NCBI GenBank assembly: GCA_051884805.1
Contig: JBJEWA010000110.1
Span: 11,204 to 75,203, forward strand
Reading direction: 5' to 3'
Length of the DNA stretch: 64,000 bases
Source of the DNA: Kiritimatiellia bacterium
GTDB taxonomy: Bacteria > Verrucomicrobiota > Kiritimatiellia > RFP12 > UBA1067
The notes below the pieces were generated by a model. The model was not told the origin of the DNA, searched no databases, and was given only the letters and a program-made list of their open reading frames with translations. This document shows positions 32,432 through 62,641 of this stretch, in pieces (the stretch's first letter is position 1; each line of letters begins with the position of its first letter). The position numbers were made by a program, and so were the translations under genes.

Positions 32432-34231
32432 ATGAAAACATCGCTTTGCTTTTGCTGTCTGGCCTTGGCCGGCTCCTCCCTGGCGTTCACCCTCTCGTCG
32501 CCGGACGGGCGACTTTCGGCGGATCTGGCGACCGACGGCGGTTCGCTGCGGATTTCGCTCGACGGCCAGCCGGTCGTGTCCGTCACCGGCCTGCCCGCAG
32601 TCGCCGGCGAGGCCGCCCGGAGCCGGATCGACCGCACCTGGGAGAATCCGCTGGGCGAGCGGCGTACGGTGCGCGACCATGCGAACCTTGCGTCATGGCG
32701 CGGGCTGGAGCTGCGGGTGTATGACGCCGGCGTCGCCTGGAAGGCGGCGGACGACCGGGGCGAGTACGTCTTTGCCTTCGCGGAGGACGCGCGCTGCTGG
32801 CCGGTCTCCCACGCGCAGGGCAAGTACGAGCCGTTCCCGCTCTCGCGCCTCGGCGAGCAGCGCGAGATGCCCGGCTGGGCGCCCGTGGCCGCGGGCTTCG
32901 GCAAGATGTTCAACTACGATCAGCGCTACATCGTGGCGGGCAGCTGCGAGTCGCCGCTGGTCGTCGAGCCTGCGGGCGCGGTCGTCGCGCTCGGCGATGC
33001 GGCCGTCTACGGCGGCGCCCGGCTCCGTTTCGTGAAGGGCGACGCCCCGCATGCGGTGAAGAGCTATCTGGAAGGTCCGCGCGCCGGCGACGCGTCGAGC
33101 TGGAAGTACGTGCGCGTCGCGAAGACGCCCGCCGAGCTGTACGCGGGCAACGACCTGCCGCTGAACCTGTCGCAGCCCGCCGACGCGACGACCTTGGCGC
33201 GGCTGCGGCATGGCCCGGGCAAGGTCCTCCGCCTCGCGAAGCTCGACACGCAGGTCGGGCACGAGGCCGTCGATTTCATCGTGTCGCACGGGATGCAGTA
33301 CCTGGAGATCGACTGCGGCTGGTACGGTCAGGAGCATACGGGCGATCCGCTCCGGCCCGGGCTGGCGCCCGAACGGGTCGCGCGGGGCGAGCAGTTCGAT
33401 CTGCTCGACATCCTCGCGTACGCGAAGTCGAAGCGCGTGCCGGTCATTCTCTACGTGAACCGTGCGCCGCTCATGAAGAACCACGTGGCGATTCTCGACC
33501 AGCTCGCGGCCTGGGGGGTCGCGGGCGTGAAGTACGGCTTTCTCCACGTCGGCAGCGCCGAGGCGCGCGAGTGGGCGTTTACGCTCGTCCGGGCGGCGGC
33601 GGAGCGCGGGCTGCTCGTTGACATCCACGACGAGATGCGCTGCACCGGCGAGCAGCGCACCTATCCGAACCTGATGACGGTCGAGGGCATCTGCGGCAAC
33701 GAGGAGATGCCGACGGCGGACCATGACGCCGCGCTCGTCTTCACGCGTTATCTGACCGGTCCCGGCGACTACACCCCGTGCTGGCGTGTCAACCGCGTCA
33801 AGAACACCTACGCGCATCAGCTCGCGCTGCCGATCGCGTATTTCAGCCCCTGGCAGTTCCTCTACTGGTACTCGAAGCCGTCGGACATTCCGGACGATCC
33901 GGCGCTGCAGGTCTGGCGGGAGATTCCGACCGTGTGGGACGAGACGAAGGCGCTTGCGGGCGAGATCGGCCGGTATGCCGTCGTCGCGCGGCGGAGCGGC
34001 CGGCTGTGGTACGTCGGCGGCGTGAACGGCCTCGACCGCCGGACGCTTGCGGTCGATCCCGCCTTCCTCGGCGGCGGCGAATGGAAGGCGCGGATCTTTG
34101 CCGATGCCGATGCGACGCTTGCGCAGGGGCTGGGCGCGGTGGCGATTCGCGAGGTGGATGTCGCCGGACCGCTGACGATCGACTGCGCCGCCCGCGGCGG
34201 TTTCGTCATCCGCTTCGAGCCGGTTCGGTAG
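32432..34231 (+). CDS. GH97-like glycoside hydrolase
   Basis: Signal peptide MKTSLCFCCLALAGSSLA at 32432. MQYLEIDCGWYG, GVAGVKYGF and RTYPNLMTVEGICGNEE resemble GH97 (RTYPN..EG..G.E). The last 47 nt plus the stop are part of the 50-nt direct repeat. Confidence 0.8.
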   Translation: MKTSLCFCCLALAGSSLAFTLSSPDGRLSADLATDGGSLRISLDGQPVVSVTGLPAVAGEAARSRIDRTWENPLGERRTVRDHANLASWRGLELRVYDAGVAWKAADDRGEYVFAFAEDARCWPVSHAQGKYEPFPLSRLGEQREMPGWAPVAAGFGKMFNYDQRYIVAGSCESPLVVEPAGAVVALGDAAVYGGARLRFVKGDAPHAVKSYLEGPRAGDASSWKYVRVAKTPAELYAGNDLPLNLSQPADATTLARLRHGPGKVLRLAKLDTQVGHEAVDFIVSHGMQYLEIDCGWYGQEHTGDPLRPGLAPERVARGEQFDLLDILAYAKSKRVPVILYVNRAPLMKNHVAILDQLAAWGVAGVKYGFLHVGSAEAREWAFTLVRAAAERGLLVDIHDEMRCTGEQRTYPNLMTVEGICGNEEMPTADHDAALVFTRYLTGPGDYTPCWRVNRVKNTYAHQLALPIAYFSPWQFLYWYSKPSDIPDDPALQVWREIPTVWDETKALAGEIGRYAVVARRSGRLWYVGGVNGLDRRTLAVDPAFLGGGEWKARIFADADATLAQGLGAVAIREVDVAGPLTIDCAARGGFVIRFEPVR

Positions 34232-34233
34232 GG
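34184..34233. repeat. Left copy of a perfect 50-nt direct repeat (putative attL)
   Basis: tgcgccgcccgcggcggtttcgtcatccgcttcgagccggttcggtaggg is identical base-for-base to 62592-62641. Confidence 0.95.
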
Positions 34234-34272
34234 AGGAGCGCGCAACCGTCGTGCCCTCCCTCATGCGTTGGG

Positions 34273-34302
34273 TTGACAGGGTTTCCCGTTTTATGCTACA
34301 AT
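34273..34302 (+). promoter_or_regulatory. Strong sigma70-type promoter at the island's left end, reading inward
   Basis: Consensus TTGACA 34273-34278, 18-nt spacer, extended -10 TGcTACAAT 34294-34302. Predicted TSS is near 34309. Confidence 0.6.
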
Positions 34303-34330
34303 GAGGGCAAAGCGAATACGAGGATTTGGA

Positions 34331-34639
34331 ATGACGATAGCAGCTGAATATTGCAAGTCCAGCTCTACCCCCCGGGGGGGGGGGGGGGGGTATCAGCCTA
34401 AGCGCCTTTTAGACGCGCTGAAGGCTGACAGGTTTGAGTCGTCGGCGCAGGATGCTGGCGAAAGCTGCTGGTTAACGTTTTCTGATTCTGACCGGGGAAA
34501 CCGGTGGCAACGGCAAGGGGGCTGTTGGAATAAGGACGCCCGCCTTGGCGCGATTGCCTTTGCTTTTTATGTCATGGACGGGTTTCGCCATGGCATTTCC
34601 GGCGTCGGCGATTTTCATGCCGGCGATGTGCGAAGCTGA
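34331..34639 (+). CDS. Hypothetical 102-aa ORF containing the G17 tract (possible phase-variable small ORF; may be non-coding)
   Basis: GAGGA 34320-34324, then 6 nt, then ATG 34331. The G17 tract spans codons 15-20 (RGGGGG). Adding or removing 1 G gives a stop within 3-7 codons. No recognisable domain, and the composition is atypical. Confidence 0.3.
   Translation: MTIAAEYCKSSSTPRGGGGGYQPKRLLDALKADRFESSAQDAGESCWLTFSDSDRGNRWQRQGGCWNKDARLGAIAFAFYVMDGFRHGISGVGDFHAGDVRS
34368..34390. repeat. Homopolymer C6 immediately followed by G17
   Basis: Counted directly: C at 34368-34373 and G at 34374-34390. Confidence 0.95.
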
Positions 34640-34819
34640 CCCAACGCTCCCGTATGTCCGATGGCGGCAAGCGGCGGCACTCGATTTGCGGGCGCGACTG
34701 TTGCCCGGCGAACGGGTCCTCGACATCCGCCGCAAGGCCGTCACCCTGGACTGTCCGTGTTGATTACCGATTCAAACCACGACGAATAATCTCGGCGTAA
34801 GCTGCAGCAGAGGAGGAAA

Positions 34820-35506
34820 ATGAAGGTCAAAGCGACAAAAGCCCTGGGTGTTTTCACGGTTGCAACCATGTCACTCTTGTGTCTCTCGGCACAGGAAGTG
34901 CAGGTCCGCACCTACTCTGCGGCCGGCTCGGGCTCGCCGACTGGGAATCGGGTTGAGTCCAGGTTGATCGTTCCGCCGGATTCGCCGGCATTCGTCGGCG
35001 AACAGCCGTTTGCCTTTGCCGTGATGCCGATGCTGGAGGCGCCGGATCGTTCGATGGACTCGGTTCTGTTTCGGTTCAACCTTTTTGTCGGCGCCCACCG
35101 TTGCACCTACATTTTCGACCTGGGGTTGATCGGCGGCATTACGGATTACGAGATGAACGGCCTCGCGATTTCCGGCATCTTCAATCGGATTGGCACCTCT
35201 GGGGGCGCGTTTCAATTTGCCGGCATCTGCAACTGTTCGAGCCTGGACATGAACGGATGCCAGCTTGCGGCGGCCTGGAACTGGACGGGCGGTCGGTTTG
35301 CCGGGCTTCAGCTCGGGCTCATGAACAGGGGCGGGAGCCTGGACGGGCTTCAGCTCGGCGGACTCAATCTGGCCGAGCAGGGGTCTGGCGTGCAAATTGG
35401 CGTCGTCAACGTTTCCGAACGTCTTGAGGGGCTGCAGATCGGCGCTTTGAACGTCAATCGCGATTCTGCCGTGCCGGTGATGCCCGTGCTCAACTTTGCG
35501 TTCTAA
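34820..35506 (+). CDS. Secreted repeat protein with G(L/V)Q(L/I)G-x-(L/V)N repeats and aromatic C-terminus (possible outer-membrane/surface protein)
   Basis: AGGAGG at 34811-34816. Signal peptide MKVKATKALGVFTVATMSLLCLSAQE. Repeats GLQLGLMN, GLQLGGLN, GVQIGVVN, GLQIGALN. Ends VLNFAF. Confidence 0.75.
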   Translation: MKVKATKALGVFTVATMSLLCLSAQEVQVRTYSAAGSGSPTGNRVESRLIVPPDSPAFVGEQPFAFAVMPMLEAPDRSMDSVLFRFNLFVGAHRCTYIFDLGLIGGITDYEMNGLAISGIFNRIGTSGGAFQFAGICNCSSLDMNGCQLAAAWNWTGGRFAGLQLGLMNRGGSLDGLQLGGLNLAEQGSGVQIGVVNVSERLEGLQIGALNVNRDSAVPVMPVLNFAF

Positions 35507-35518
35507 AGGGGAGGTAAA

Positions 35519-35911
35519 ATGAAGTTGCGATTGCTGATGTGCGTCGCCGCATCATGTCTTGCGGGCGGATGTCTTTCGCCGAAGACGAGCGGCATGGTGG
35601 TCGAGAAGGGCAGGCTGTTCGTGCACGACCCTTCCTTCGCGCTCAATCTCGAAACCGTGCAGGACGTCCGCGAACGCACGCCGGAGGGCTTCTTGCACGT
35701 TCAGGTCACGGTCCGCAACACGAATCAGACCGATTTCCGGTGCCAGTATCGTTTCGAGTGGAAGACGAAGCAGGGGCTTGCGCAGACGCAGGCCATGACG
35801 CCGTGGCGTCCGACGGTCCTGCACGGCAAGGACGAAACCGTATTTGAGGCAACCTCGACGTTGCAGGGGGCGGAGGATTTTCGCCTGGCCATTCGCAGGG
35901 CCGCACCCTGA
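35519..35911 (+). CDS. YcfL-like (DUF1425) lipoprotein
   Basis: GGGGAGG RBS. Lipobox LAGGC. HVQVTVRNTN...QYRFEWKTKQGL parallels the YcfL core (YRFYWYD..GL). Confidence 0.7.
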   Translation: MKLRLLMCVAASCLAGGCLSPKTSGMVVEKGRLFVHDPSFALNLETVQDVRERTPEGFLHVQVTVRNTNQTDFRCQYRFEWKTKQGLAQTQAMTPWRPTVLHGKDETVFEATSTLQGAEDFRLAIRRAAP

Positions 35912-35944
35912 ACGCGGGTAAGGAAAAGCTGAAAGCAGGTCAAA

Positions 35945-37024
35945 ATGAAAAAGTCCCCAATTGCTCTCGCTGCTGTTCTCGTGGCCTTGTCGGCTTTTGC
36001 CGATCCGGTCAAGGCATTGCTGGTAGTTCAGAATCACACCGGCGCCGAATGCCTGCTCAAGCTGCCGAATCTTGCCACGCGCCTGTCGGCGGCTTTGAGC
36101 GGTGATGTCCTTGAAGTCATAGATCCGAACGATGTCATCGGTGAAGATCAGAACCGCAGTGTCAAGGGCGAGAACATGCCGCTCTCGTCCGCGACGCGAC
36201 TGGCGGAAAACCTCGGTGCGGCGGCGCTCGTTACGGCTTCGATCGACGACATTTCCGAGGTGACCGTCGGTTCGCCGGCGATTGCCCGGCAACTGACGGT
36301 CACCATGACGTTGCAGGCGAAGCGCGTCCCGTCGGGAGGCGGCACCGGCGGCGTCGAGGTGATGGCGCTCTCGCGCAAGTACACGCCGGACGACATGCGG
36401 CAGAATCAGCGCGCGATTTACGCCCAGCTCATGTCGCAGATCTGCAAGAATGCGGCGCAGCAGCTTTTGCCGCAGGTTGCGAAGGTCTCGTGGACGGCGC
36501 CGGCCCAGAAGGTCATGGTCGCTTTCGGCTGCAACTATCCCGGTGCGGACGTTTCGATTGACGGCGTGTCGTACGGCACGGCGGGCACGATCGGCGAGGC
36601 CCCGCTCCAGGTTCCCGTCTCGCCGGGGATCCACAATCTGACGGTCTCCTATCCCTTTGCGGAGCCCTATCGGGTGCAGGCGCACTTCATGCCGAACTCG
36701 ACCTATGTGATTTCCCTGCAGCCGACGGAAGAAGGCCGCCGCCGCCGCAAGGACGACGCCTACTTCGCGCAGCTTCTCGACCGCGCCGCGAAGAGCGGAG
36801 CGACGGACGATTTTTGCCGCACGGAGCGGGCCAAGGGCTACGCCAGGTATCTTGCGAGCTCGCATACGCGCATCGAAGGCATGCCCCAGGTGCTTGCGAA
36901 GTGGAATTGGGGCAATGCGAACCAGTCGCCGGAGCTTGGCCTTAAGCCGGAGCAGGGCGACGAGCAGGTCGAATCGACGGAAACGGTCCTGAAGAAGGCG
37001 GCCGAACAGGTTGAGAGGAAGTGA
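35945..37024 (+). CDS. Secreted PEGA-domain protein with LpoB/CsgG-like N-terminal region
   Basis: Signal peptide MKKSPIALAAVLVALSAFA. N-terminus ALLVVQNHTG. PEGA-like GADVSIDGVSYGTAG...GIHNLTVSYPFAEPY. Confidence 0.7.
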   Translation: MKKSPIALAAVLVALSAFADPVKALLVVQNHTGAECLLKLPNLATRLSAALSGDVLEVIDPNDVIGEDQNRSVKGENMPLSSATRLAENLGAAALVTASIDDISEVTVGSPAIARQLTVTMTLQAKRVPSGGGTGGVEVMALSRKYTPDDMRQNQRAIYAQLMSQICKNAAQQLLPQVAKVSWTAPAQKVMVAFGCNYPGADVSIDGVSYGTAGTIGEAPLQVPVSPGIHNLTVSYPFAEPYRVQAHFMPNSTYVISLQPTEEGRRRRKDDAYFAQLLDRAAKSGATDDFCRTERAKGYARYLASSHTRIEGMPQVLAKWNWGNANQSPELGLKPEQGDEQVESTETVLKKAAEQVERK

Positions 37025-37034
37025 AAGGATCAAA

Positions 37035-37652
37035 ATGAAAAAACTGCTGTTTGTCGCTGTTGCCGCCGCGCTTGCGGGGTGTGCGACGGGTCCGGGGCGC
37101 GGCTACCTCGACACTGAGGAGGACGTGTACGGCAAGTCGTCCAGGATGGAGTATTCGCAGAAGCACCGCAAGGTCGCGGAGTCGGTCGAACGGCTCCTGA
37201 CCGATCCGATGTTCACGACGAACTACGATAAGGCGCGGAAACGGGCTGCCGATGCCGGACGTGCGCTGCCGACGATATCCATCAATCCGATCGAGAACAA
37301 CACGGGTGATGGCCGTTCGGATTCGGAGGCTGCCGGTCAGCTCTATCGTGAACTGCTGACGGCCATCCGCAAGACGGGCAAGTTCGCGATGATCGACAGG
37401 ATGCGGCGCAAGCAGATGACCGCCGCCACGATTGCGGGAAACAATGCCGGGGAGGATGCCTCGGCGCTGCAGAGCGCCGGCAACTACGTCTCTGCCGATT
37501 TTGTCATGACCGGCGAGCTTCGCCGCGAGGCGACGGACGACGGACGCCGCCAGGTGTTTCATCATTTCCTCAATCTCGAGCTGATAGACTCTGCTTCCGG
37601 CGTCGTGTTCTGGAGCGATTCGATGCCGGTCGCGAAGTTTGACGCTCGCTAA
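37035..37652 (+). CDS. LpoB-like (COG3417-type) lipoprotein
   Basis: Lipobox LAGC. ISINPIENNTGDG...LLTAIRKTGKFAMIDR...SADFVMTGEL...ELIDSASGVVFW follows the LpoB/CsgG-fold pattern. Confidence 0.7.
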   Translation: MKKLLFVAVAAALAGCATGPGRGYLDTEEDVYGKSSRMEYSQKHRKVAESVERLLTDPMFTTNYDKARKRAADAGRALPTISINPIENNTGDGRSDSEAAGQLYRELLTAIRKTGKFAMIDRMRRKQMTAATIAGNNAGEDASALQSAGNYVSADFVMTGELRREATDDGRRQVFHHFLNLELIDSASGVVFWSDSMPVAKFDAR

Positions 37653-37672
37653 CCATTCCTTGGAGAACGACA

Positions 37673-38836
37673 GTGAAAATGACGGCAAAACTGCGTGCGG
37701 TGGGCGTTGTGACTCTCGGAGCCGCCCTTTGCGGATGCGAAAGCATGAAGCCCGAGGGCTTCACCTGGGAGGGCACGGGCTTCTCGTTTGACAGCAAGCG
37801 GCAGTTGAGCGAGCCGGTGCGTGCGGGCGAATTCGCAACCTTCTCGTTCCCGGAGTTGCGCCGCATCGAGGAGGTGCCCGCCCAGATCGTGTTTTCGGAC
37901 GACATTGAGAACGTCTTCATCAACAAGCGCATGCTGTGGGGCACGTCCGAGACGGTCGCGTCGGTTCCGGTGTCGACGCTGGTGCGCCGGCAGTTCACGC
38001 AGGCGGTTTCCGAGCACTTCCATCCGCTTGTCGGCGATCAGCAGCCGGCCATCCGCGTCTTTGTCGACATCCTCGGCATCATCCTGACGAGGGAAGAGGG
38101 CACGGTCAAGAGCCAGGCCACGATGCGCATCACGATTCGGGACGTGGCCAAGGACGCGATTTGCCACGAGAAGATCTACCGCGGCAAGTCGGAAATGCCG
38201 TGGGACGGAGGGGCCCTGATTCCCGACTCCGTGTACAGGTGCATTCAGGAAGTCGCGGCGGAGTTCCTGCGGGATATTGCGAAGGACCGGACGCTGATTG
38301 CGCGACTGGAGGGCGTGACCCCCGATGCGAAGACGATCCGGAAGCCCTCCTTCCGGCGGCTGGACATCAAGCCGAAGAACGACGCCGGAGTCATTCAGGG
38401 CGCCTGCGTTCTCGCCTGTAACGATTGGGACGAGTGCCGTGCGGCGAACTGGATGCGCGCGCAGCTCGAACGCCGTTCCGAGAACCAGCTGGGCATAGAG
38501 GCGTCGCGGGTGCGGGTAATCTACGAGTCCAGTTCGTACGACGGCGAAAAGAAGGAGTGGAGCGTTTCCTTCTCGGCGTTCGCGCGTTCGGAAATGGTGC
38601 TTGATTACGACGCGACGACCAAATCCGGCACGTGCATCGTGGACTTCGGGCTGATGGGCACGACTGCGGAGAAGGCGGCCGAGGCGCTTAAGAATTATGT
38701 GATGCAGGAGATGGACAAGCGGGCGGGCGCCCAGCAGACCGGGACGGAGGGCGCCAAGGCACAGGTGCGCTTCGACGACTTCAAGACCGATCAGCGCTAT
38801 TCGCTGTCCTACTGCGCGTTCCATGCCGTTTACTGA
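37673..38836 (+). CDS. Lipoprotein of unknown function
   Basis: GGAG at 37662-37665 before GTG 37673 (alternative ATG 37679). Lipobox GAALCGC. 387 aa with no recognisable domain. Confidence 0.7.
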   Translation: MKMTAKLRAVGVVTLGAALCGCESMKPEGFTWEGTGFSFDSKRQLSEPVRAGEFATFSFPELRRIEEVPAQIVFSDDIENVFINKRMLWGTSETVASVPVSTLVRRQFTQAVSEHFHPLVGDQQPAIRVFVDILGIILTREEGTVKSQATMRITIRDVAKDAICHEKIYRGKSEMPWDGGALIPDSVYRCIQEVAAEFLRDIAKDRTLIARLEGVTPDAKTIRKPSFRRLDIKPKNDAGVIQGACVLACNDWDECRAANWMRAQLERRSENQLGIEASRVRVIYESSSYDGEKKEWSVSFSAFARSEMVLDYDATTKSGTCIVDFGLMGTTAEKAAEALKNYVMQEMDKRAGAQQTGTEGAKAQVRFDDFKTDQRYSLSYCAFHAVY

Positions 38837-38877
38837 TTTCTCCCGATTTGGCGGGAGAACACAAAAGGAGACACAAA

Positions 38878-39228
38878 ATGAAGAAAATCATTGGCTTCGC
38901 GGCGGTTGCCGCAGCCGCGATGGTAATGACAGGCTGCACGACGTCACCTCAGAACTTTTCTGAAGCATCGTTGCCCGTTGAACAAGGGAAATACACTGTG
39001 GTTGGCGAGGAGGTTGAGGGCACTGATTCGCAGCTGATGGTCTTGGGTTATGGTGTTGGTCTGCCGGGTTCGCCGCAGCGTCGCGCACTCAAGAATGCGT
39101 TGGACAAGGCATCAGGAGCCGATGGCTTGGTCAGCATGGCCGTCGATTATCAGTTGCTCAACCTGTATATCGTACAGGTTTTGACTACGCGCATCACGGG
39201 CACGCCCATCAAGACGAACAACAAGTGA
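38878..39228 (+). CDS. Small lipoprotein (possibly TRL-like)
   Basis: AAGGAG at 38864-38869. MKKIIGFAAVAAAAMVMTGC lipobox. 116 aa. Confidence 0.7.
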   Translation: MKKIIGFAAVAAAAMVMTGCTTSPQNFSEASLPVEQGKYTVVGEEVEGTDSQLMVLGYGVGLPGSPQRRALKNALDKASGADGLVSMAVDYQLLNLYIVQVLTTRITGTPIKTNNK

Positions 39229-39238
39229 TGTGCGTTAA

Positions 39239-39272
39239 GCCCCGCCGGATCGATTTCCTCATCTGGCGGGGC
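39239..39272 (+). terminator. Hairpin after the small lipoprotein gene (possible intrinsic terminator/attenuator, no U-tract)
   Basis: GCCCCGCC 39239-39246 pairs with GGCGGGGC 39265-39272, with inner GAT/ATC pairing. Confidence 0.35.
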
Positions 39273-39310
39273 GTGCCTGCACGGACAATGATCGAGGGGA
39301 GAAAAGCAGC

Positions 39311-40789
39311 ATGGACAAAATTCGCGGATGCCTCTTGTTGATTATGATGACGGGAACCTTCCCCGCCTTGGCTGCGGATGTCGCGGAAGCGTCGACAGCT
39401 GGGAATCGTCCGCGTATTTACGTCCATGCGTTTAAGACGTCCGAGTCTTTTGTTCTTCCGGAGAAGCGTCAGTCCGCTTCCGACTCGCGTTCGGTGGCCC
39501 TCGGAAAATCCTATCTGACCGGCAGGCTCGTCAAGCCGGGACGTCCTTTCTCGGTCGTGGACGACGAGAAGGCCGCGACCCATGATCTCGTTCCCGTAGT
39601 TTCGTTCCTGCGTTCCCGTGAAAACTCCTTCAGGGGGGCGACATACGGCGTGGAGACCAAGACGACGAAATGGCTCTTGGATGTGATCCTTACGCTGAAG
39701 CAGCGCGCGACCGGCGAAATCGTCTGGGCGAAGACCGTGTGCGGCACGTGCGACGAACAGCGACCGATCAGCGCCTCGCAGTTTGACGACAATGTTTTCC
39801 ATTCGCTGATGATTTCCGCCGTCGAGGAGGCAGCCGATGCCTTGGTCGAGCACTTCGAACCGCAGCCGGACGAATCCGGACCGGCGGGCGGCGGCGTTGT
39901 CCCGCATTCTGCCGGGCCGGTCGGCAGGGCGGCGGGCTCCTGCGCCTCCATGGCGGCGCCTGTCAAGCCGTCGTTGGCGATTCTTCGTCCTGATTTCCGG
40001 GATGGCGTGACGGAGAACGAGGCCGTGATGCTTTGGGGCTACATGGAGAGCTGTGTGGACGGTTCGGCCTACCGGGTGATTTCCCGCGCCGACGTGGTGC
40101 GGATGATGGAAGAGGTTGCGATCACTACCTCTTCCTATCTCACCGATCCGGCCTGCCGGGAGAAGGCCCGCGTGGGCAAGCTCGCGACGGTCTCGAAACT
40201 CCTGGCCGCGTCCGTCGGCCGCGTGGGGACGAAATACGTCATGACCTTCAAGGTCTTTGACGCTTCGACCGGCGAAATCGAAGCGGCGCGCACGGACAGC
40301 GCGACCTCCGATGCGATCGAGGATCTTCTGCCCGTCATCAGGGGGAAGGTGGCGAAGGCGCTCGCCCCCGCGCCGTCGGGAACGGTGCTGGCGCCTGTCG
40401 TCATGCGGGTGGGAAATCCGCCGAAATACCTGGCGAACGAGTTCGGTGCGCGGCTTGAGGCGGCTCTTGCCGGGGCTGGCGTCGCCTTCAAGACCAACGG
40501 CGAGGGCTCCCGCCGGCTGACGCCGTGCGTCACGGCGTTTTCCGTCCGCGCCGTGCAGGACGGCGACGGCTGCGTCTATCGCGGCACTATCGCCTTTTCG
40601 CTCGTTCTCGCCGATGCGGCCGGGACGCCTGTCGCCGCGCCCGTCACGGTGTCGCTCGATGACGTCGAACTCGGTCGCGAAACCGGAGCCGCGCCGTCGT
40701 GGCTGACGGAGCGATACGGGAAGAAGCTCATCGACGCCGCATTCGGGAAGGTGTCGCTCGCCGCCCTGTCGGCGGCTTCGGACAAATAA
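39311..40789 (+). CDS. Secreted protein with two LpoB/CsgG-fold-like halves, unknown function
   Basis: Signal peptide MDKIRGCLLLIMMTGTFPALA. RPRIYVHAFKTSE and SLAILRPDFRDGVTENEA...YRVISRADV...SKLLAASVGRVGTKYVMTFKVFDASTGEI. Confidence 0.65.
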   Translation: MDKIRGCLLLIMMTGTFPALAADVAEASTAGNRPRIYVHAFKTSESFVLPEKRQSASDSRSVALGKSYLTGRLVKPGRPFSVVDDEKAATHDLVPVVSFLRSRENSFRGATYGVETKTTKWLLDVILTLKQRATGEIVWAKTVCGTCDEQRPISASQFDDNVFHSLMISAVEEAADALVEHFEPQPDESGPAGGGVVPHSAGPVGRAAGSCASMAAPVKPSLAILRPDFRDGVTENEAVMLWGYMESCVDGSAYRVISRADVVRMMEEVAITTSSYLTDPACREKARVGKLATVSKLLAASVGRVGTKYVMTFKVFDASTGEIEAARTDSATSDAIEDLLPVIRGKVAKALAPAPSGTVLAPVVMRVGNPPKYLANEFGARLEAALAGAGVAFKTNGEGSRRLTPCVTAFSVRAVQDGDGCVYRGTIAFSLVLADAAGTPVAAPVTVSLDDVELGRETGAAPSWLTERYGKKLIDAAFGKVSLAALSAASDK

Positions 40790-40799
40790 GGGTACAGAT

Positions 40800-41561: not shown

Positions 41562-41571
41562 GGGGGGAGAG

Positions 41572-44804: not shown

Positions 44805-44817
44805 GGTGGCGGAAAAC

Positions 44818-45687: not shown

Positions 45688-45688
45688 C

Positions 45689-46582: not shown

Positions 46583-46583
46583 G

Positions 46584-50736: not shown

Positions 50737-50752
50737 ACAAGAAGGGAAACCG

Positions 50753-54886: not shown

Positions 54887-55951
54887 ATGCGAAAGACAGT
54901 CAGGTGGAGTTGGGCCGTGGCGGCGGTGAGCGCCTGTGTGGCGGGCGCGGCGTTTGCGGCGAGCGAGCCGACGGGCGTCAGACCGTCGTTCAGACAGGAT
55001 CTCGGCGATGCCGACGGGCGCATGGCGGCCTACCTGTGCGCGTTGGGCGATTTCCGAAATGCCGCCGTCGAGAAGGCGTCGGCCGTAGTCGCCCGGCAGT
55101 TCGTCCCCGCCGCACAGACGAAGTGGAACGCCGACGTGGCGGCTGAGATGGACGATCGGCTGCTGGCGGACTTTTTCCGTGGCGCCATCGCGATGACCGG
55201 CCCCCAGACACCGGACGGCGGCATCGGAGGCCTGTACAACCCCTGGTGGGATGCGCTGCTGGTGATGCGTCTCAAGCCCAAGGAGAACGGTCCGGAAGCG
55301 TCCTTTGCGGTGACGGAGTTCCATTTCCTGAGCGGCGAGACCTTCCGCGGCGAACCCGTAGAGCGCGATCCGAAGGAGATTTCCTGCCGGACGGTCGTGC
55401 CGGAGGGCGATCCGCTTTCGGTCGAGCTGTGGCGCGTCGTCGCGGCAACGCGGCGGAAGTTCGAGCAGGCGTTTCCGATGGACGGAAAGGTCGGTTGGGG
55501 CGGATTTGCGTCCAAGCTGCTGGCGCTGGACCGCGTCCGCGAACATCAGCGCATCGTGGCGAGGGCGGCCTTGCGTCTCAAGCTCCGCCAGACGATTCTG
55601 CGCGATCCTGCGGCGCTGGGCAAGTCCAAGGTGTTCGAGAATCTCGTCAGGACTGGCAATCACTATCAGCTCTTCACCTACTTTCGCGATCCGAACTGTT
55701 TCGGCGTCATGCGGACGCTTTCGGAGCTGCCGGCGGTCTTCCGCCAGGATTTCACGCTTTATGGCTACGTGCCGACGACGGAGGGCGCCCAGTATCTTTA
55801 TGTGAACGCCAAGGTGCCGCGGCTTTACGCAACGATTGCGGTTCCGAAGGACGTCGGGAAAAGGCCGGCGTCGCTGGAATGGTTCGACCTGGCCCAGGCC
55901 GACGACCTGCTGCGCGTTTGGAATGCCCGTGACGACAAGGAGGCGAAATGA
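54887..55951 (+). CDS. Secreted protein of unknown function within the Tad operon
   Basis: Signal peptide MRKTVRWSWAVAAVSACVAGAAFA. 354 aa with no recognisable domain. Confidence 0.7.
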   Translation: MRKTVRWSWAVAAVSACVAGAAFAASEPTGVRPSFRQDLGDADGRMAAYLCALGDFRNAAVEKASAVVARQFVPAAQTKWNADVAAEMDDRLLADFFRGAIAMTGPQTPDGGIGGLYNPWWDALLVMRLKPKENGPEASFAVTEFHFLSGETFRGEPVERDPKEISCRTVVPEGDPLSVELWRVVAATRRKFEQAFPMDGKVGWGGFASKLLALDRVREHQRIVARAALRLKLRQTILRDPAALGKSKVFENLVRTGNHYQLFTYFRDPNCFGVMRTLSELPAVFRQDFTLYGYVPTTEGAQYLYVNAKVPRLYATIAVPKDVGKRPASLEWFDLAQADDLLRVWNARDDKEAK

Positions 55952-57714
55952 AAATGCAGAACTTGCGGTCTTCGGCCGTATCGGTCGTCCTGCTGTCGCT
56001 GTCCGTGTTTTCGCACGCTCCGGCACTGGCGCTGGAAGGCGGGAACTCGGGCGCTTCCTCGACGGGGTCCGGTTCCCTGTCGGCGGACGTCGCGACCCTG
56101 GTGACGGACAAGTTCGGGGAGGTCGTCGGCAGGACCGTCGCCGACGAGGGCCTGGCGCAGATGGTGACGGAAGCCGTCAAGACGAAAATCGACGAGGCGC
56201 TCCAAAAGGGCGAGAAGTGGGTTGAGGATGGCGGCATCCGCAAGACCGTCCAGGAGCAGTTGGAGAAGCAGCTTGACGGCAAGGTTTCCGACGCGGACAA
56301 GCAGCGCATCCTCAATCTTGCGGACACGCTCTGCAACGTCGGCGCCGACGGCGGCGTGAGCTTCGTCCAGACGCTTGGAAGCGACGGCAAGGACCTGGCC
56401 GTCTCGCTCGCGGTGAAGGAAATCGAGCGGCAGATCTCCTCCGCGCTGCCCAAAGACGTCGCGGACAACGTCAACGCCATGGTCGAGGTGCTGGCCGCTA
56501 CGGGGAACGTCAACGATCCGTCCGTCAGGGCGGAGATGATCAACGCGATCCAGTCGGCCGTCTCCGAATACGTGCCGTATGCGAATTCCGCCACGACGAT
56601 CAACGATCTCGTCCGGCAGATTGCGGACGGCCAGGCCGTGGACGTGATGACTGCGGCCAAGGACCTCGGCAAGAGCATCGGCGTGGACGCGCTCAAGGAG
56701 GCCGTTTCGGCGAATCTGGACAAGGCGGCTGCCGAGCGGGTGAACGCGCTGATCGACGCCTATACGAAGGATGGCGTTGGGGGCCTGACGGACGCCGCGA
56801 TCGCGGAGATCGTCGCGGCCATCGACAAGTATGCGCCCGGGACGGATTCCTCCAATGCGCTCAAGGACGTCGTCGGCAAGCTGAAGGACGGCACGATCCA
56901 GGCGTCCGACCTGAAGAAAGCCGCCACCGCACTCGGCGTGGACGGCACGAAGAAGCTGATCGATTCGAGCAATCTCACGGACGAGCAGAAGAATGCGGCC
57001 AAGGAGGCGGTTGATGCGATCGCTGAGAACGGCTGGTCCGGACTTACCGACTGCGTTCAGGAATACATCCGGCAGAATGTCACGGACAGGTTGGGTCAGG
57101 AGGCTGGCGATGCCGTCGCCAACATCTTTGAAGCCGTCGTCAATCCGGGCGTGGACGTCTGGGACGCGCTGAACACGAATGCGCCGATTATCGGCAAGGC
57201 GCTGGTCGATACGGCGCTGGTGAGAGTGGAGCAGTGGACGGCCGATCAGCTCGACCGGCTGATCGCCAAGAATCCCTTTATCGCCGAATTGTTCGGCAGA
57301 TTGGGCATCGACGGCAGTGGCATCGTCGCGGGCGTGAAGAACATCTGGAACGTTCTCAGCACCAAGGACATGGCGGAGGCCTTCGCCGAACTGTCGCAGA
57401 TGGCGGTTGATTTCCTGAAGGACATCGCCGCCAAGCTGATTGACTGGGGGGTCGAGGCGCTTATGAACTGGGCCAATTCGATCATCGGCAAGGTCATCGA
57501 TTGGCTTGCCCAGATGATCGGCAATGCCGCACAGGCGGTTGGCGACGTGCCGGCGATACGAAGCGCCTTGCAGAAGCTGCAGTGCGCGTTGTGCGCCGCC
57601 AAGACGAACGGCACGCTGACGGTGTCCGCCTGTGGCGTAGGTTCGAATGTCGTCAACTGGATCGAGGGCAAGGTCAATTCGAAAAAGAAGACGGAAGGCA
57701 AGATCGACAAGTGA
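55948..57714 (+). CDS. Secreted Ala/Asp/Lys-rich, predicted all-helical protein of unknown function (588 aa)
   Basis: ATGA overlap (alternative ATG 55954). Signal peptide LRSSAVSVVLLSLSVFSHAPALA. Low-complexity helical sequence throughout. Confidence 0.7.
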   Translation: MKMQNLRSSAVSVVLLSLSVFSHAPALALEGGNSGASSTGSGSLSADVATLVTDKFGEVVGRTVADEGLAQMVTEAVKTKIDEALQKGEKWVEDGGIRKTVQEQLEKQLDGKVSDADKQRILNLADTLCNVGADGGVSFVQTLGSDGKDLAVSLAVKEIERQISSALPKDVADNVNAMVEVLAATGNVNDPSVRAEMINAIQSAVSEYVPYANSATTINDLVRQIADGQAVDVMTAAKDLGKSIGVDALKEAVSANLDKAAAERVNALIDAYTKDGVGGLTDAAIAEIVAAIDKYAPGTDSSNALKDVVGKLKDGTIQASDLKKAATALGVDGTKKLIDSSNLTDEQKNAAKEAVDAIAENGWSGLTDCVQEYIRQNVTDRLGQEAGDAVANIFEAVVNPGVDVWDALNTNAPIIGKALVDTALVRVEQWTADQLDRLIAKNPFIAELFGRLGIDGSGIVAGVKNIWNVLSTKDMAEAFAELSQMAVDFLKDIAAKLIDWGVEALMNWANSIIGKVIDWLAQMIGNAAQAVGDVPAIRSALQKLQCALCAAKTNGTLTVSACGVGSNVVNWIEGKVNSKKKTEGKIDK

Positions 57715-58496
57715 AGTCGGTGCGGACAGGCGTATCGCAGGGCAGCGTGCTCATGGAGTGCATAGTTGTCCTGCCGCTTTACCTGGCGCTGTTCGGCGGC
57801 CTGTTCTTTCTCGGGGAGGTTGCGGTCAACCGCCTGCGGATGAAGGTCGGCGACTTCTCCGTGACGTGGATGGGCGGTGACCGGCACGGCGTCGAAGTGT
57901 CGGGCGATGACCGATTCGGGATGGAGTACCTCTTCCAGGAGCGTTTCGACTCCAAGGGCTCGTACAGCGTCTGGGAGGCGCAGTATGCGAACGGCAGCGG
58001 CACGGCCGTCAACAAGATCAACTACCACTCCGCACTCTATCAGGGATGCGTCGATTTCACCGTCGGCATCCCCGATTGGATTCGCGGCCTGCTCTTTGCC
58101 CAGACCGCCATGACGGGCGCGGAAGACGGGTTGCCGGATGTGGACGGACCGCCCGGCGTTCGTGAGTGGGATGCCGTGAATGAGGTCGCGATCTTCGGGG
58201 GCGATTCCTATCCGCGTTCCGTCTCGATACACCGCATCCGCCCGGCGACGCTCCAGGATCCGTCCTTTGCCGCGGTGCTGAGGACAAACTACAACCGCGC
58301 CCGCACGGGAGGGGATGCGGAAATGGACTGGCCGGCCAAACGCGCACAGGTCATGCTGGCGGACAACACGCTGCTCAATGTCATTGCCGACAGTTGGATC
58401 GTGTCGGTCCAAGACGTAGGTGCGAACAACGTGCAGGCGATCAGCCAGGTGACTGCCGCCGATGTTCCGCGGGCGCTCGCACAGTTTGGAGAGTAG
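57711..58496 (+). CDS. Second TadE-like pseudopilin
   Basis: GTGA overlap. N-terminus SQGSVLMECIVVLPLYLALFGGLFF is the TadE-type motif. Confidence 0.7.
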   Translation: MKSVRTGVSQGSVLMECIVVLPLYLALFGGLFFLGEVAVNRLRMKVGDFSVTWMGGDRHGVEVSGDDRFGMEYLFQERFDSKGSYSVWEAQYANGSGTAVNKINYHSALYQGCVDFTVGIPDWIRGLLFAQTAMTGAEDGLPDVDGPPGVREWDAVNEVAIFGGDSYPRSVSIHRIRPATLQDPSFAAVLRTNYNRARTGGDAEMDWPAKRAQVMLADNTLLNVIADSWIVSVQDVGANNVQAISQVTAADVPRALAQFGE

Positions 58497-58500
58497 GGAT

Positions 58501-58968
58501 ATGAAAGCGACGATTATGCTGGTTCTGGCGCCGAGCCTCGTCCTCGGCGTGGCGATGGCCGAGACGGGGGGAGCGGCGGGAAACGAGCCACCGCGTTCGT
58601 GCGGGTGCGCACGCCCTGCTCCGTCCGAAGCGGACACCGGGGTGACGGCGGAGCAGCTGGATGCGGCGATTGCCGAACTGCAGCTGCTCAAGACGCGGAT
58701 TCCGCCGGGCGGATCGCTCAAGCCGCCGACCCCGAAGGAAATCGTCGCGCAGCTGGAGGCGTTCAGAAGCGAACCGGAATTTGCGCAGCTGCCGGAGGAG
58801 CAGCGACGGAAGTTCGAGGAGGGGGTGGCGCAGTTGCGCCGAGAATTGTTGCACAAGCCGGCGGCCGCCCGTCCTGCGCACGGCTGGACGTCAGCCAGTC
58901 CTTCGCCCTATGTCGTTCGCGAAAACGGACGGAGCGTTTACTTCATTCCGAAAGGACGCCGGCGGTGA
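58501..58968 (+). CDS. Small secreted protein of unknown function
   Basis: Signal peptide MKATIMLVLAPSLVLGVAMA. Helical middle region AEQLDAAIAELQLLK. Confidence 0.65.
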   Translation: MKATIMLVLAPSLVLGVAMAETGGAAGNEPPRSCGCARPAPSEADTGVTAEQLDAAIAELQLLKTRIPPGGSLKPPTPKEIVAQLEAFRSEPEFAQLPEEQRRKFEEGVAQLRRELLHKPAAARPAHGWTSASPSPYVVRENGRSVYFIPKGRRR

Positions 58969-59792
58969 GCGGGCGTTTCGAACACGTTTCGTTCGCGGCG
59001 AAAAGCGACCCCGGCCTGCAGCGCACCCGGAACGAGGACGCCTTCGGCGCGTTTCCCGCCTACGGCGTCTGGTGTGTCGCGGACGGCATGGGCGGCGGCC
59101 AGGACGGGGCTCTCGCTTCTGCGACGGCAGTCCGGTTCGTTGAGAACTATCTCCGGTCGTTTCCGCCGCTCGACCGCGCGAGCTATGCCATCGACGACGT
59201 CCTGGACAATGTGCGGGATGCGGTCAACGAAGCGTCGGAGTTCCTTTTTGATCACACGAAAAGGCTCGGACTCAAGGGGTGCGCCACGACGTTTGCCTGC
59301 ATTTGCCTGGACGGGGCCCGTCCGACGGCGGCGTTCGTCCTGCATGCGGGAGACAGCCGCGTTTATCGCCTGCGGGACGGCGTGTTGCGGCAGGTCACCA
59401 AGGACCATTCGCTCTCCGAGGCGATGGGGGTGGACGAGTCGCGCCTCAGCTGCGATCTGCGGTCGATTATCACGCGCGGCGTTGGCGTGGAAAGCGAAGT
59501 CGTGCTTGAAACGTCGCCTGTCGATCTGGCCGAAGGGGATTCGATTCTCCTCTGTACCGACGGATTGACGCGGATGGTTCCCGCTGACACGATACGGGCC
59601 GTCCTGTCGTCGGATGGGGCCTGCGACGAACAGGTGGCCTCGCTCGTTGCCGCGGCCAACGGGGCCGGGGGCGTGGACAACGTGACGGTGGAGGTGCTGA
59701 AGCTCGGGAAGCTGCCGCCGGAAAGCGACACGGTGGAAATGCGGGACGAAGATAGAATGAATACCGTCCATGTGTCGGATCGCGTCCGATGA
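58965..59792 (+). CDS. PP2C-family Ser/Thr phosphatase
   Basis: GTGA overlap. RTRNEDAF, CVADGMGG, CTDGLTRMV and GGVDNVTV are the PP2C metal-binding motifs. Confidence 0.9.
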   Translation: MSGRFEHVSFAAKSDPGLQRTRNEDAFGAFPAYGVWCVADGMGGGQDGALASATAVRFVENYLRSFPPLDRASYAIDDVLDNVRDAVNEASEFLFDHTKRLGLKGCATTFACICLDGARPTAAFVLHAGDSRVYRLRDGVLRQVTKDHSLSEAMGVDESRLSCDLRSIITRGVGVESEVVLETSPVDLAEGDSILLCTDGLTRMVPADTIRAVLSSDGACDEQVASLVAAANGAGGVDNVTVEVLKLGKLPPESDTVEMRDEDRMNTVHVSDRVR

Positions 59793-59852: not shown

Positions 59853-60914
59853 ATGCAGGACAACAATTCGTTTCTGACGCTGTTCCTTCAACCGGTGGCG
59901 GAATATCTCGGTGACGACACCGTCAGCGAGATCCTGATCAACGGGCCCGCATGCGTGTACGTCGAACGCAAAGGCAAGCTGGAGGAGGCGCCGGCGAAGT
60001 TCGTGAGCGAACCGGCCCTGAAGGCGGCGGCCGCGAACATCGCCAAGTCGGTCGGACGAATCCTCGACGAGATGCATCCGCAGCTTGACGCTCGTCTCCC
60101 GGATGGCAGCCGCGTTCATGCGGTAATTCCGCCGCTCTCGCGGGTCGGAACGGTCATTGCGATCCGCAAATTCAAGAAGGATACGCTCACCGTCGACAAG
60201 ATGCTGGCTTTCGGCAGCATGGACGAAAAGCTGCGGCGGCTCGTCCGCGCCCTGGTTCTCCTGCACAAGAACGTGATCGTGTCGGGGGCGACTAGCTCCG
60301 GCAAGACCTCCGTTCTCAATGCCTTGAGCTCCTTCATTCCCGGGAACGAGCGCGTGCTGGTCATCGAGGACGCCAGCGAGCTTCAGCTTCAGCAACGGCA
60401 CGTCGTGCCGTTCGAGACGCGCAAGGCGGACAAGAACGGACAGGGCGAGGTGACGATTCGCGATCTCATCCGTTCGGCGTTGCGGCTCCGCCCCGACCGT
60501 ATTGTCATCGGCGAGATTCGCGGCGGCGAAGCGCTCGATCTGCTGCAGGCGCTCAATACGGGCCACGCCGGCTCGATGAGCACGATTCACGCGAACTCGC
60601 CGCTGGATGCCTTGAGCCGCATTGAGACCTGCGCGCTCCTGAGCGGCATCGACATCCCCCTGGCGGCCCTTCGCGCTCAGGTCGCGAGCGCCATCGGCGC
60701 GGTCGTCCATACGGCGCGGCTTGCCGACGGTTCGCGCAAGGTCGTGTCGGTTTCCGAAGTGCTTCCGCTCGACGGCGGCGACTATCGCGTCCGGGAGCTG
60801 CGCCGTTGGAAAACGGAGTCCATTTCGCCTGACGGCACCGTCTGCGGCGTTTTTGCAACCGGCGACGCGCCCTCGTTCGCCGAAGATGCCCGCATTGCCG
60901 GCATCGAACTGTAA
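59853..60914 (+). CDS. Second, short CpaF/VirB11-like secretion ATPase (no FHA domain)
   Basis: ILINGPACVYVERKGKL. Walker A GATSSGKTS. VIEDASEL. DRIVIGEIRGGEALDLLQALNTGHAGSMSTIHAN. Confidence 0.88.
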   Translation: MQDNNSFLTLFLQPVAEYLGDDTVSEILINGPACVYVERKGKLEEAPAKFVSEPALKAAAANIAKSVGRILDEMHPQLDARLPDGSRVHAVIPPLSRVGTVIAIRKFKKDTLTVDKMLAFGSMDEKLRRLVRALVLLHKNVIVSGATSSGKTSVLNALSSFIPGNERVLVIEDASELQLQQRHVVPFETRKADKNGQGEVTIRDLIRSALRLRPDRIVIGEIRGGEALDLLQALNTGHAGSMSTIHANSPLDALSRIETCALLSGIDIPLAALRAQVASAIGAVVHTARLADGSRKVVSVSEVLPLDGGDYRVRELRRWKTESISPDGTVCGVFATGDAPSFAEDARIAGIEL

Positions 60915-60925
60915 GGTTGCCGGTT

Positions 60926-62548
60926 ATGGACGTTTCTCGTATGCCCAAGGAGGGCGACCGGTTCGGCAACTGGATTATCGAGCGTACGCTTGATAAGGGC
61001 GGGATGGGACAGGTTTATCTCGCTTATAATCCCGATCTCGGGAAATCCGAGAAGGTTGCGCTGAAAGTCCTTGATCCGACCGTGGCCGAACGGGATGCTG
61101 ATTTTGTCAAGCGATTCTACCAAGAGGCATCCATTGTATTCAAGACGCATTGTCCGCACCTTGTGTCGATTCACGATGCGGGACGTGATGCTTCTTCGGG
61201 TTGCTACTATATCGTCATGGAGCATCTTGGCGGCGGTACGCTGCGCGACCGGATTCGGAGCCGGGGCCGCATTCCGTGGCGGGAGGCGCTGTCCGTCGTC
61301 CGGTCGGTCGCCGTGGCCCTTGCGGCCGTCGCCAAGCGGAACTCCGTCCATCGCGACATCAAGCCGGAGAACATCATGTTCACGGCGGACGGGGTTGTCA
61401 AGCTGGCGGACTTTGGCATCGCCAAGGCGGCGCAGGATGACGTGCCGGACAATGCCGATCCGTTGAAGACCCGCGCCTTGCAGATATTCGGCACGCCGTC
61501 CTATATGTCGCCGGAGCAGATGTCCGACGCTTCCAATGTCGATGCCCGCGCCGACATCTGGAGTTTGGGCGTCGTCCTCTTCGAGATGCTCGCCGGCGCA
61601 AGGCCCTATCCCGCGCAGGATCTCGTTCAGGCCGGGGCGTTTCTGCTCTCGCCGCAGCCTTTCCCCGACATCCGCACGTTTAAGGCCCCCGTCATGGTCG
61701 GTGCGCCGCTACCGGCGGAAGAAGCCATGCAGACTCAGGCTACGGTGGCAACGCTGGCGATGTGCGCGGATGCCGTGGAGGTTCCCGACGAAGTGGCCGA
61801 CCTGTTGGCCCGAATGTGCGACAAGGATCTTGGCCAGCGCATCGCCACGAGCGAAGCGGTGATCGAGGTCATCGACCGACTGCTGAAGGATTCCGATTCG
61901 ACCTCGGCTGAGGCTCCCGCTGCGGCACGGCTCGCGTCCGCGACGCGGCACGCATCCGTTTCGAGGCAGCCGCACACGGGGCGGAAAAGATGGTTGCTCC
62001 GGATTGCCTGTGCCGCTCTTGCCGTGATTTTGGGCGTACTTGGCGCTTTTGTGCTTCGGCAGCCGCATCCGCCTGCCACCTCGGCCCCCGTGTCGCCCAA
62101 TCCGACCAATCGGCCTGCGTCTAAGGTCCAGGGGACGGCGGCAAACGCGAAAACGGCCGTCTCGGGTAATGTCATGGCGAAGCCCCCGCAGCCGCTCCCG
62201 CCGGTCGCACCGACCGTCTCTCCCGCTCCTCCGTCAGGCCCGACGACGGCGGTTCTCCGGACGGTGTCGCAAGTTTCGGTATTCCAGCCGCAGCGCGGAA
62301 GCATCGCTTCGGTCCTTTCGCAGTTGGATGCGGAGATTGGCAAAAAGCCCGTCCGTCTCAAGGTGTCGCTGTCGGCCTTGGCGCAGCTAAAGGACTTGTC
62401 GGTCGAGCGCTACGAACAGCAGCTGCTGGTTCCGGCGATAGAACGTTTGCAGATGTCCGGAGTGAGCTTTTCTCTCGTGCCTGGTCCGGGGAAATATGGC
62501 TCGGTTGTCCGAGAGCTGGCCAGACGATTCGGTTGTGACCTTGATTGA
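60926..62548 (+). CDS. Hanks-type Ser/Thr protein kinase, single TM, Pro-rich linker and small extracytoplasmic C-terminal domain
   Basis: GGMGQVY, ALKVL, HRDIKPENIMF, DFGIAK, GTPSYMSPEQ. TM: LLRIACAALAVILGVLGAFVL. Confidence 0.92.
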   Translation: MDVSRMPKEGDRFGNWIIERTLDKGGMGQVYLAYNPDLGKSEKVALKVLDPTVAERDADFVKRFYQEASIVFKTHCPHLVSIHDAGRDASSGCYYIVMEHLGGGTLRDRIRSRGRIPWREALSVVRSVAVALAAVAKRNSVHRDIKPENIMFTADGVVKLADFGIAKAAQDDVPDNADPLKTRALQIFGTPSYMSPEQMSDASNVDARADIWSLGVVLFEMLAGARPYPAQDLVQAGAFLLSPQPFPDIRTFKAPVMVGAPLPAEEAMQTQATVATLAMCADAVEVPDEVADLLARMCDKDLGQRIATSEAVIEVIDRLLKDSDSTSAEAPAAARLASATRHASVSRQPHTGRKRWLLRIACAALAVILGVLGAFVLRQPHPPATSAPVSPNPTNRPASKVQGTAANAKTAVSGNVMAKPPQPLPPVAPTVSPAPPSGPTTAVLRTVSQVSVFQPQRGSIASVLSQLDAEIGKKPVRLKVSLSALAQLKDLSVERYEQQLLVPAIERLQMSGVSFSLVPGPGKYGSVVRELARRFGCDLD

Positions 62549-62549
62549 C

Positions 62550-62565
62550 AGTGACCGCCGTCACT
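62550..62565 (+). terminator. Short hairpin directly after the kinase stop (weak terminator candidate)
   Basis: AGTGAC-cgcc-GTCACT: a 6-bp stem with no clear U-tract. Confidence 0.25.
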
Positions 62566-62591
62566 CGGTCTTCCTGCCGTGCGGACCGATG

Positions 62592-62641
62592 TGCGCCGCC
62601 CGCGGCGGTTTCGTCATCCGCTTCGAGCCGGTTCGGTAGGG
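62592..62641. repeat. Right copy of the perfect 50-nt direct repeat (putative attR)
   Basis: Identical to 34184-34233. It lies 43 nt after the kinase stop and 82 nt before the GH39-like start. Confidence 0.95.

Follow-up and report, generated by a model that had tools for sequence, protein, structure and literature searches.

We analysed a stretch of 64,000 nt (the window) from contig JBJEWA010000110.1 of assembly GCA_051884805.1, which represents an uncultured Kiritimatiellia bacterium. Within it, a 28,408-bp block carrying the genes of a Tad/Flp machine lies between the two copies of a direct repeat, the first of which coincides with the 3' end of a gene of glycoside hydrolase family 97 (GH97). 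We give a somewhat better than even chance to the view that this block is a genomic island, inserted at the end of the GH97 gene without an integrase of its own. Coordinates are those of the window, and all features lie on the + strand unless stated otherwise.

Boundaries of the block

The repeat has one copy at 34184-34233 and another at 62592-62641, their starts being 28,408 nt apart. All 50 nt agree, and the very next base already differs at both edges. On our own estimate, a perfect 50-nt repeat would be expected by chance about 1e-21 times in 64 kb. Apart from an intergenic family resembling repetitive extragenic palindromic (REP) sequences, the 50-mer is the sole long perfect repeat of the window.

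The left copy, a putative attL core, corresponds to the final 47 nt plus the TAG stop codon (plus GG) of the GH97 gene. This gene (32432-34231) encodes a protein of 599 amino acids with Pfam matches to GH97_N, Glyco_hydro_97 and GH97_C, and it is leaderless, with the arrangement TATAAT-N6-ATG at its start. Its C-terminus, ...CAARGGFVIRFEPVR, bears an AARGGF..E motif that is conserved among GH97 orthologues and is therefore a genuine gene end. Because the repeat contains the stop codon, the GH97 gene stays intact. In the locus of the closest GH97 relative (L001, 77% identity), the GH97 frame runs on into an open reading frame (ORF) of 1,269 amino acids at 9977-13786, and the C-terminus corresponding to the repeat here is not a gene end.

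The right copy, a putative attR core, is intergenic. It lies 43 nt 3' of the stop codon (62546-62548) of a Ser/Thr protein kinase gene and 82 nt 5' of the start (62724) of a GH39 gene, which matches Pfam Glyco_hydro_39 with E = 1.9e-86 and runs off the end of the window. The right flank (62642-64000) has the architecture of the host genes, with a promoter-like TTGGGG-17-TAGGAT followed by the leaderless GH39 gene. The preliminary description of this DNA had reported the identical repeat, the left copy as the end of the GH97 coding sequence including its stop codon, and the intergenic right copy just past the kinase; sequence comparison, Pfam matches and gene coordinates bear it out on all of these. 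It had also pointed to an extra ggaccg match upstream, in frame as GP. This match exists but is not above chance: local alignments of the 150-nt segments on each side of the two copies gave the same scores as shuffled sequence. For the same reason we rejected the idea, raised in that description, of a longer, decayed GH97 paralogue of which the right copy would be the end. Shared and inverted 9-11-mers were also compared between the two ends of the block, and nothing convincing as arm-type sites was found. An ATG immediately 5' of the right copy opens a mini-ORF of 16 codons (62589-62639; MCAARGGFVIRFEPVR followed by a stop), which is probably meaningless.

Base composition and gene-start architecture

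The guanine plus cytosine (GC) content is 68.7% over positions 1-34183, 62.9% between the repeats and 63.9% over 62642-64000, this last segment measuring only 1.36 kb. When a single change point in GC was sought across all 64 kb with no reference to the repeat, the break fell at 34,200 (near-equivalent range 34,100-34,300), that is, on the left copy, and the tetranucleotide profiles switch at the same point. The mean GC content at third codon positions (GC3) is 0.882 in 12 host genes, among them carB with 0.927, versus 0.778 in 24 genes of the block (Mann-Whitney p = 9e-6). The GC3 of GH39, 0.861, is higher than in any of the 24 block genes and lies among the host values; codon positions 1 and 2 account for the low raw GC of this gene. 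The right boundary is visible only at synonymous sites, over the 1.36 kb of right flank. The lower GC inside the block than outside it, which had been judged by eye, is thus established by computation on the left, whereas on the right the return to host composition is seen in GC3 only.

The architecture of gene starts changes along the window as well, from leaderless monocistronic genes to genes of a predicted operon with one promoter and Shine-Dalgarno sites (AGGAGG, GGAGG, AAGGA), and back to a leaderless gene at GH39. This agrees with the contrast drawn in the preliminary description. The arrangement TATAAT-N6-ATG occurs four times in the window, where 0.7 would be expected by chance, each time at an ORF start and in front of a carbohydrate-active enzyme (CAZyme) gene of the host (12075, 17313, 22068 and 32420). 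GH39 has TAGGAT-N6-ATG (62712), and carB has a TATAAT further upstream (309). These starts suggest that the polysaccharide-degradation genes of this Kiritimatiellia genome are expressed systematically as leaderless, monocistronic units.

Past the right copy raw GC is still low, which would also suit a block that is only half of a larger composite (accretion) element, with an integrase and perhaps a third 50-mer beyond the window; alternatively, the cognate integrase would be encoded elsewhere and the element would still be mobile. The source contig measures 95,322 bp, of which the window covers 64 kb and 31 kb remain. Tandem arrays at gene 3' ends that combine a cis-mobilizable element (CIME) with an integrative and conjugative element (ICE) or an integrative and mobilizable element (IME) are common (PMC7563491, PMC5704250). 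The adjoining GH39 gene, with its host-type GC3 and its leaderless promoter architecture, argues against such a continuation, which we regard as unlikely.

Gene content of the block

The left end of the block (34234-34819) is non-coding, as judged from GC3, and comprises a predicted promoter, a C6G17 tract and a leader of about 520 nt. The sigma-70-like promoter (34273-34302), 40 nt past the left copy, reads TTGACA-18-TACAAT, with 11 of 12 consensus positions and an extended -10 TG. An ORF starting at 34301 has a GC3 of 0.58, as expected of non-coding DNA. No known RNA element was matched in the leader by Rfam, either at the gathering threshold or at E <= 1, and no protein domain by Pfam over all six frames of the 586-nt segment. 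About 70 nt 3' of the predicted promoter, a run of C6 is directly followed by G17 (34368-34390, with G17 at 34374-34390). No other homopolymer in the window reaches 9 nt, and this one lies 140 nt from the left junction, inside the block. The G17 run may be phase-variable, in which case the expression of the operon might be so as well; it may instead form a G-quadruplex or be a place where sequencing or assembly is unreliable.

After the leader come about 27 genes, all on the + strand and mostly preceded by Shine-Dalgarno sites, so arranged that the block reads as one long operon with its own predicted promoter. Pfam and NCBIfam searches recovered the lipoprotein, Tad, FHA and kinase genes that had been described between the repeats, and a PP2C phosphatase gene in addition.

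The first seven genes (34820-40789) form a lipoprotein/envelope module. Pfam and NCBIfam identify an LA_2272-repeat protein (34820-35506), a DUF1425 protein (35519-35911), a PEGA protein (35945-37024) and an LpoB-like protein (37035-37652). These are followed by three unknowns (37673-38836, 38878-39228 and 39311-40789). The module recurs in the same order, at 62-80% identity, in the related locus L082.

The Tad/Flp core (40800-54865) follows, its gene calls being available also from a contig of the Logan assemblies (L090). Pfam identifies CpaB/RcpC (40800-41561), the secretin (41572-43131), a CpaF ATPase in which FHA and T2SSE domains are fused in one protein (43131-44804), TadB (44818-45687), TadC (45689-46582), an FHA protein (46584-48101) and a double-FHA protein (48098-50536). 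Further on are the prepilin peptidase (51103-51636), TadE (51633-52388) and TadG (52385-54865), likewise identified by Pfam. The Flp pilin (50753-51106) has no Pfam match and was recognised by its G/AVMMEY motif, of the G/xxxxEY type. The component set of a Tad/Flp (type IVc) system is thereby complete, the pilin by motif and all others by Pfam.

Four accessory genes, assigned by inspection of their sequences and by the gene calls of L090, come next: two secreted unknowns (54887-55951 and 55948-57714), a TadE-like pseudopilin (57711-58496) and an unknown of 155 amino acids (58501-58968). The block closes with a PP2C phosphatase (58965-59792), a second ATPase of the CpaF/VirB11 type without FHA (59853-60914) and the Ser/Thr protein kinase (60926-62548), all identified by Pfam and NCBIfam. 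This last module probably gates assembly of the machine through phosphorylation sensed by the FHA domains.

Relatives of the Tad system

Kiritimatiellia, Victivallales and Lentisphaeria have many homologues of the FHA-CpaF ATPase (64-76% identity), so any donor of the block would probably be another member of this group. The Tad loci of the relatives have a GC content of 54-67%, nearer to the block than to the host flank with its 69%. The gene order from CpaB to TadG is kept in four related loci (L082, L083, L087 and L088), where the ATPase is 72-76% identical. The neighbouring modules differ: a ribbon-helix-helix gene, then the lipoprotein module and PP2C in L082; thioredoxin, PFK and MazG in L083; an acyl carrier protein in L087; and PP2C with a giant kinase, a double kinase of 1,781 amino acids, in L088. 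By gene content and order, the Tad system is modular and belongs to the usual equipment of the lineage, in surroundings that change from locus to locus. Since the synteny of GH97 is equally unconserved at this distance, these varied contexts do not separate mobility from ordinary rearrangement.

Among the same four loci, the accessory modules upstream of CpaB are shuffled and PP2C is found at differing places; the lipoprotein module is seen in L082 and the window only, among the relatives compared. The ribbon-helix-helix gene of L082 (1-151, - strand) is divergent from the lipoprotein/Tad cluster and has sub-threshold Pfam matches to a NikA-like mobilisation protein (E = 2e-4) and to the RelB antitoxin (E = 1e-3).

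The pair formed by the second ATPase and the kinase recurs in three further loci, with this ATPase at 88-91% identity (L084 8907-9971, L085 8925-9986 and L086 1282-2343). These loci belong to distant relatives of 54-64% GC, and the identity is far above that of the FHA-ATPase (76%), the kinase (57-80%) or GH97 (76%). The second ATPase always stands directly upstream of the kinase, and in L085 and L086 the pair is preceded by paralogues of the block's orf37673 and orf38848.

Junctions in independent assemblies

The exact kinase protein was found on Logan contigs from two sequencing runs, SRR30616837 and SRR30616835, which match the window at 100% identity along 11,696 and 1,995 nt, respectively. 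Both contigs end at 62621, exactly 30 nt into the right copy. The Logan assemblies use k = 31. A contig that ends after k-1 bases is what one expects of a true repeat with two upstream contexts, and therefore the junction between the kinase and the 50-mer is real in the raw data of two runs, as is the status of the 50-mer as a repeat there. The contigs that carry the first gene of the block begin at 34434 (100% identical) and at 34554 (SRR30616820; 2 mismatches over 4,417 nt), both 3' of the G17 tract.

These data bear on the suspicion that the locus is an assembly artefact, in which an empty GH97-GH39 site and a Tad block lying elsewhere or on a circle were threaded together through the shared 50-mer. 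The contig comes from a metagenome-assembled genome (MAG) built with an unknown assembler, the Logan contigs do not cross the region of the G17 tract close to the left junction, and at k <= 50 the integrated state and an empty site plus a circle give the same graph. We nevertheless find such an artefact hardly credible. Two other read sets contain the right junction with 100% identity, every scenario still needs the block to lie beside a duplicate of the 3' end of GH97 (an attP-like site), and a circle of 28 kb that lacks replication genes would probably not be maintained.

Interpretation of the locus

A perfect and sharply bounded duplicate of a gene end bracketing a block of distinct composition is the classic product of a Campbell-type insertion, and it is on this basis that we read the block as an island, as the preliminary description had done. 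The sharpness of the repeat, the intact GH97 gene, the break in GC and tetranucleotide profile at the left copy, the return of GC3 at GH39, the changes in gene-start architecture and the presence of the right junction in two other read sets favour this reading. A circular element carrying the site would have recombined with the 3' end of GH97, most likely through a recombinase of the tyrosine type. The target gene would have been regenerated, since the 50-nt segment of identity includes its stop codon, and the island would now be separated by a second copy of the 50-mer from the DNA that originally followed the gene and that holds the GH39 promoter. As it now lacks recognisable recombinase and transfer genes, the island would either be decayed with its att sites kept, in the manner of a CIME, or depend in trans on an integrase encoded elsewhere.

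Several results weigh against this reading. Pfam and NCBIfam scans, which took in the block genes, the leader in six frames and the four longest ORFs of the antisense strand, detected no recombinase, transposase or relaxase domain, which extends to profile searches the earlier remark that no such gene was apparent between the repeats. No empty site and no second genome of the species were found in the collections searched. An exact look-up of the GH97 protein gave no record, and a search of 5.8 billion proteins with it returned only the source MAG (P0001) at 100%, the next best match being at 76%. The FHA-ATPase and the kinase of the block likewise have 100% matches in this MAG, annotated as a Kiritimatiellia bacterium. 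The best non-self GH97 proteins, 76-77% identical (L001, L081), have no neighbours in common with the window, the gene context of the homologue at 76% being unrelated. A degenerate DNA pattern for GFVIRFEPVR plus stop codon was absent from JGI metagenome contigs and from IMG/VR. We also compared 80 GH97 loci from GTDB species genomes: none had GH39 near GH97. Of 78 GH97 loci examined, none carried a duplicate of its own GH97 3' end within 10 kb, hence no sign of recurrent use of the site. Related Tad loci, for their part, have no GH97-like tail after the kinase. On the left, the Logan contigs start inside the block and do not reproduce the junction; past the right copy, raw GC shows no renewed rise (63.9%, measured on just 1.36 kb). 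Finally, cargo of this kind is usual in the lineage, and the closest match to it outside its own genome stands at 76% identity, the same value as for the adjacent GH97. In the relative L083 the Tad genes have a GC3 of 0.82 versus 0.87 in adjacent housekeeping genes, and therefore about half of the 0.10 deficit of the block may be intrinsic to the cluster.

The last of these results lead to the alternative of a native, vertically inherited Tad locus whose low GC is intrinsic (amino-acid content and weak codon bias) and whose 50-nt duplicate stems from an unrelated local rearrangement or repair event. The near-ubiquity of FHA-CpaF Tad cores in Kiritimatiellia and Lentisphaeria fits it, as do a closest relative of the cluster as distant as that of GH97, the GC3 of the L083 Tad genes and the lack of detected mobility genes; with synteny so poor at this divergence, the differing contexts of the relatives prove little against it. 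However, the GC3 deficit here is twice that of L083, the change point falls within 100 nt of the repeat, and the intergenic copy, although unconstrained, is still identical at 50 of 50 positions, which points to a recent event or a functional site. No mechanism is known to us by which, in the absence of a circular intermediate, 50 nt of a gene end would be cleanly and perfectly duplicated so as to enclose precisely an operon of 28 kb. On balance we hold a native locus to be unlikely, though with an appreciable chance of being correct.

An island could also have been formed with no dedicated integrase at any time, by a RecA-dependent single crossover with a circularised fragment that contained the 3' end of GH97. 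The product would have the same structure, with a direct repeat as long as the shared homology; 50 nt is about the minimal length for efficient homologous recombination, and no integrase was found. Such a crossover requires an ad hoc circle with the last 50 nt of the gene and nothing further of GH97, while an identity ending 2 nt past the stop codon is the pattern usually left by elements that integrate site-specifically and keep the target gene whole. We therefore consider it distinctly unlikely. Very improbable, in our estimation, is an active cassette that would spread a complete, contact-dependent Tad machine of the Kil-like type among Kiritimatiellia without a recombinase of its own, through host or unrecognised recombination at the conserved 3' end of a CAZyme gene; if it were true, it would be a new route of spread for a 28-kb envelope nanomachine.

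Comparison with known elements and systems

CIMEs are a described class of elements in which attL and attR persist although the genes for recombination and transfer are gone; those of streptococci are decayed derivatives of ICEs and IMEs with att sites at the 3' ends of fda, rpsI, rpmG and other genes (PMC5704250, PMC7563491). The island that we favour resembles them in its direct-repeat flanks, one of which is the 3' end of an intact protein gene, in the lack of detected integrase, relaxase and transfer genes, and in its adaptive cargo. It differs in its phylum, Kiritimatiellota, and in being single within the window, not tandem; no cognate ICE or IME of the same specificity is known, and none was found, nor any remnant of a mobility gene here, and for the block we infer the origin by decay. 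The 50-nt identity is longer than most att cores in protein genes. In size, too, the block exceeds the CIMEs of S. salivarius (28.4 kb versus 1.2-13 kb; PMC5704250, PMC7563491). The type of element is already known, and the locus reveals no new mechanism.

Islands without their own integrase are also known among the integrative mobile elements exploiting Xer (IMEX), such as the gonococcal genetic island, which integrate at dif through the host XerCD recombinases. The block shares with them the lack of an integrase gene and the direct-repeat flanks, and may likewise rely on a recombinase encoded elsewhere. We rejected an Xer/dif-dependent island: the repeat is the coding end of GH97 and not dif, and the cumulative GC skew is monotonic, with no sign change, GC skew being positive across the window, so that it does not contain the replication terminus.

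As regards the cargo, single-locus Tad systems are often transferred horizontally (Denise et al. 2019, PMC6668835), and the tad locus has been described as a horizontally transferred unit, the Widespread Colonization Island (Planet et al. 2003, cited in PMC6668835). The block is like it in having a complete Tad/Flp machine in one locus of atypical composition, and differs by its discrete 50-nt boundaries and by the addition of FHA, kinase, phosphatase and lipoprotein modules. To our knowledge, the concept of that island rests on phylogeny and composition, with no att sites defined.

The Kil system of Myxococcus xanthus is a Tad-like apparatus for contact-dependent killing of prey, with an FHA-fused ATPase, extra FHA proteins and outer-membrane lipoproteins (PMC8460266). 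Judged against this description, the block shares with Kil an N-terminal FHA domain on the central ATPase, several more FHA proteins and predicted outer-membrane lipoproteins, on a Tad core of CpaB, secretin, TadB/C, Flp pilin and pseudopilins. Kil occupies two loci and has a single ATPase and no TadG, whereas the block is one locus with TadG, a second ATPase, PP2C and a Ser/Thr kinase.

If the block is an island as proposed, it would provide a cleanly delimited case, in the poorly studied Kiritimatiellota, of a whole Tad/Kil-like nanomachine arriving with its Ser/Thr-phosphorylation control as one insertable unit, the polysaccharide-degradation gene that served as target being preserved. It would supply the exact boundaries of a transfer unit, which are usually lacking for the Widespread Colonization Island idea, as well as a concrete attB/attP sequence to be sought in future genomes. 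Single islands without an integrase, which are missed by pipelines based on signature genes, would be detectable from repeats and composition.

Flanking genes and other features of the window

The left flank is ordered carB, a run of CAZyme genes, tRNA-Leu and GH97. The run encodes beta-helix proteins, a GH116 enzyme, an alpha-L-rhamnosidase, a GHL10-like protein and a protein with GH28 and GH2 domains. Pfam thus supports the flanks as first described, GH97-like on the left and GH39-like on the right.

The REP-like palindromic intergenic family has the core CCGCAGCGAGGGCGCTGCGGGTAC, with 4 exact copies versus 0 expected. Its copies lie at 3569-3763 (- orientation) and 30154-30677 (+ orientation), clustered after carB and just 5' of tRNA-Leu (30702-30789), and none is found within the block. 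An ORF of 1,079 amino acids at 3910-7149 is high in GC3 and matches no Pfam family. At 7782-10640, a gene full of GGCGGCGGTGGCGGC repeats encodes a protein of 952 amino acids with a glycine-rich domain and a beta-helix.

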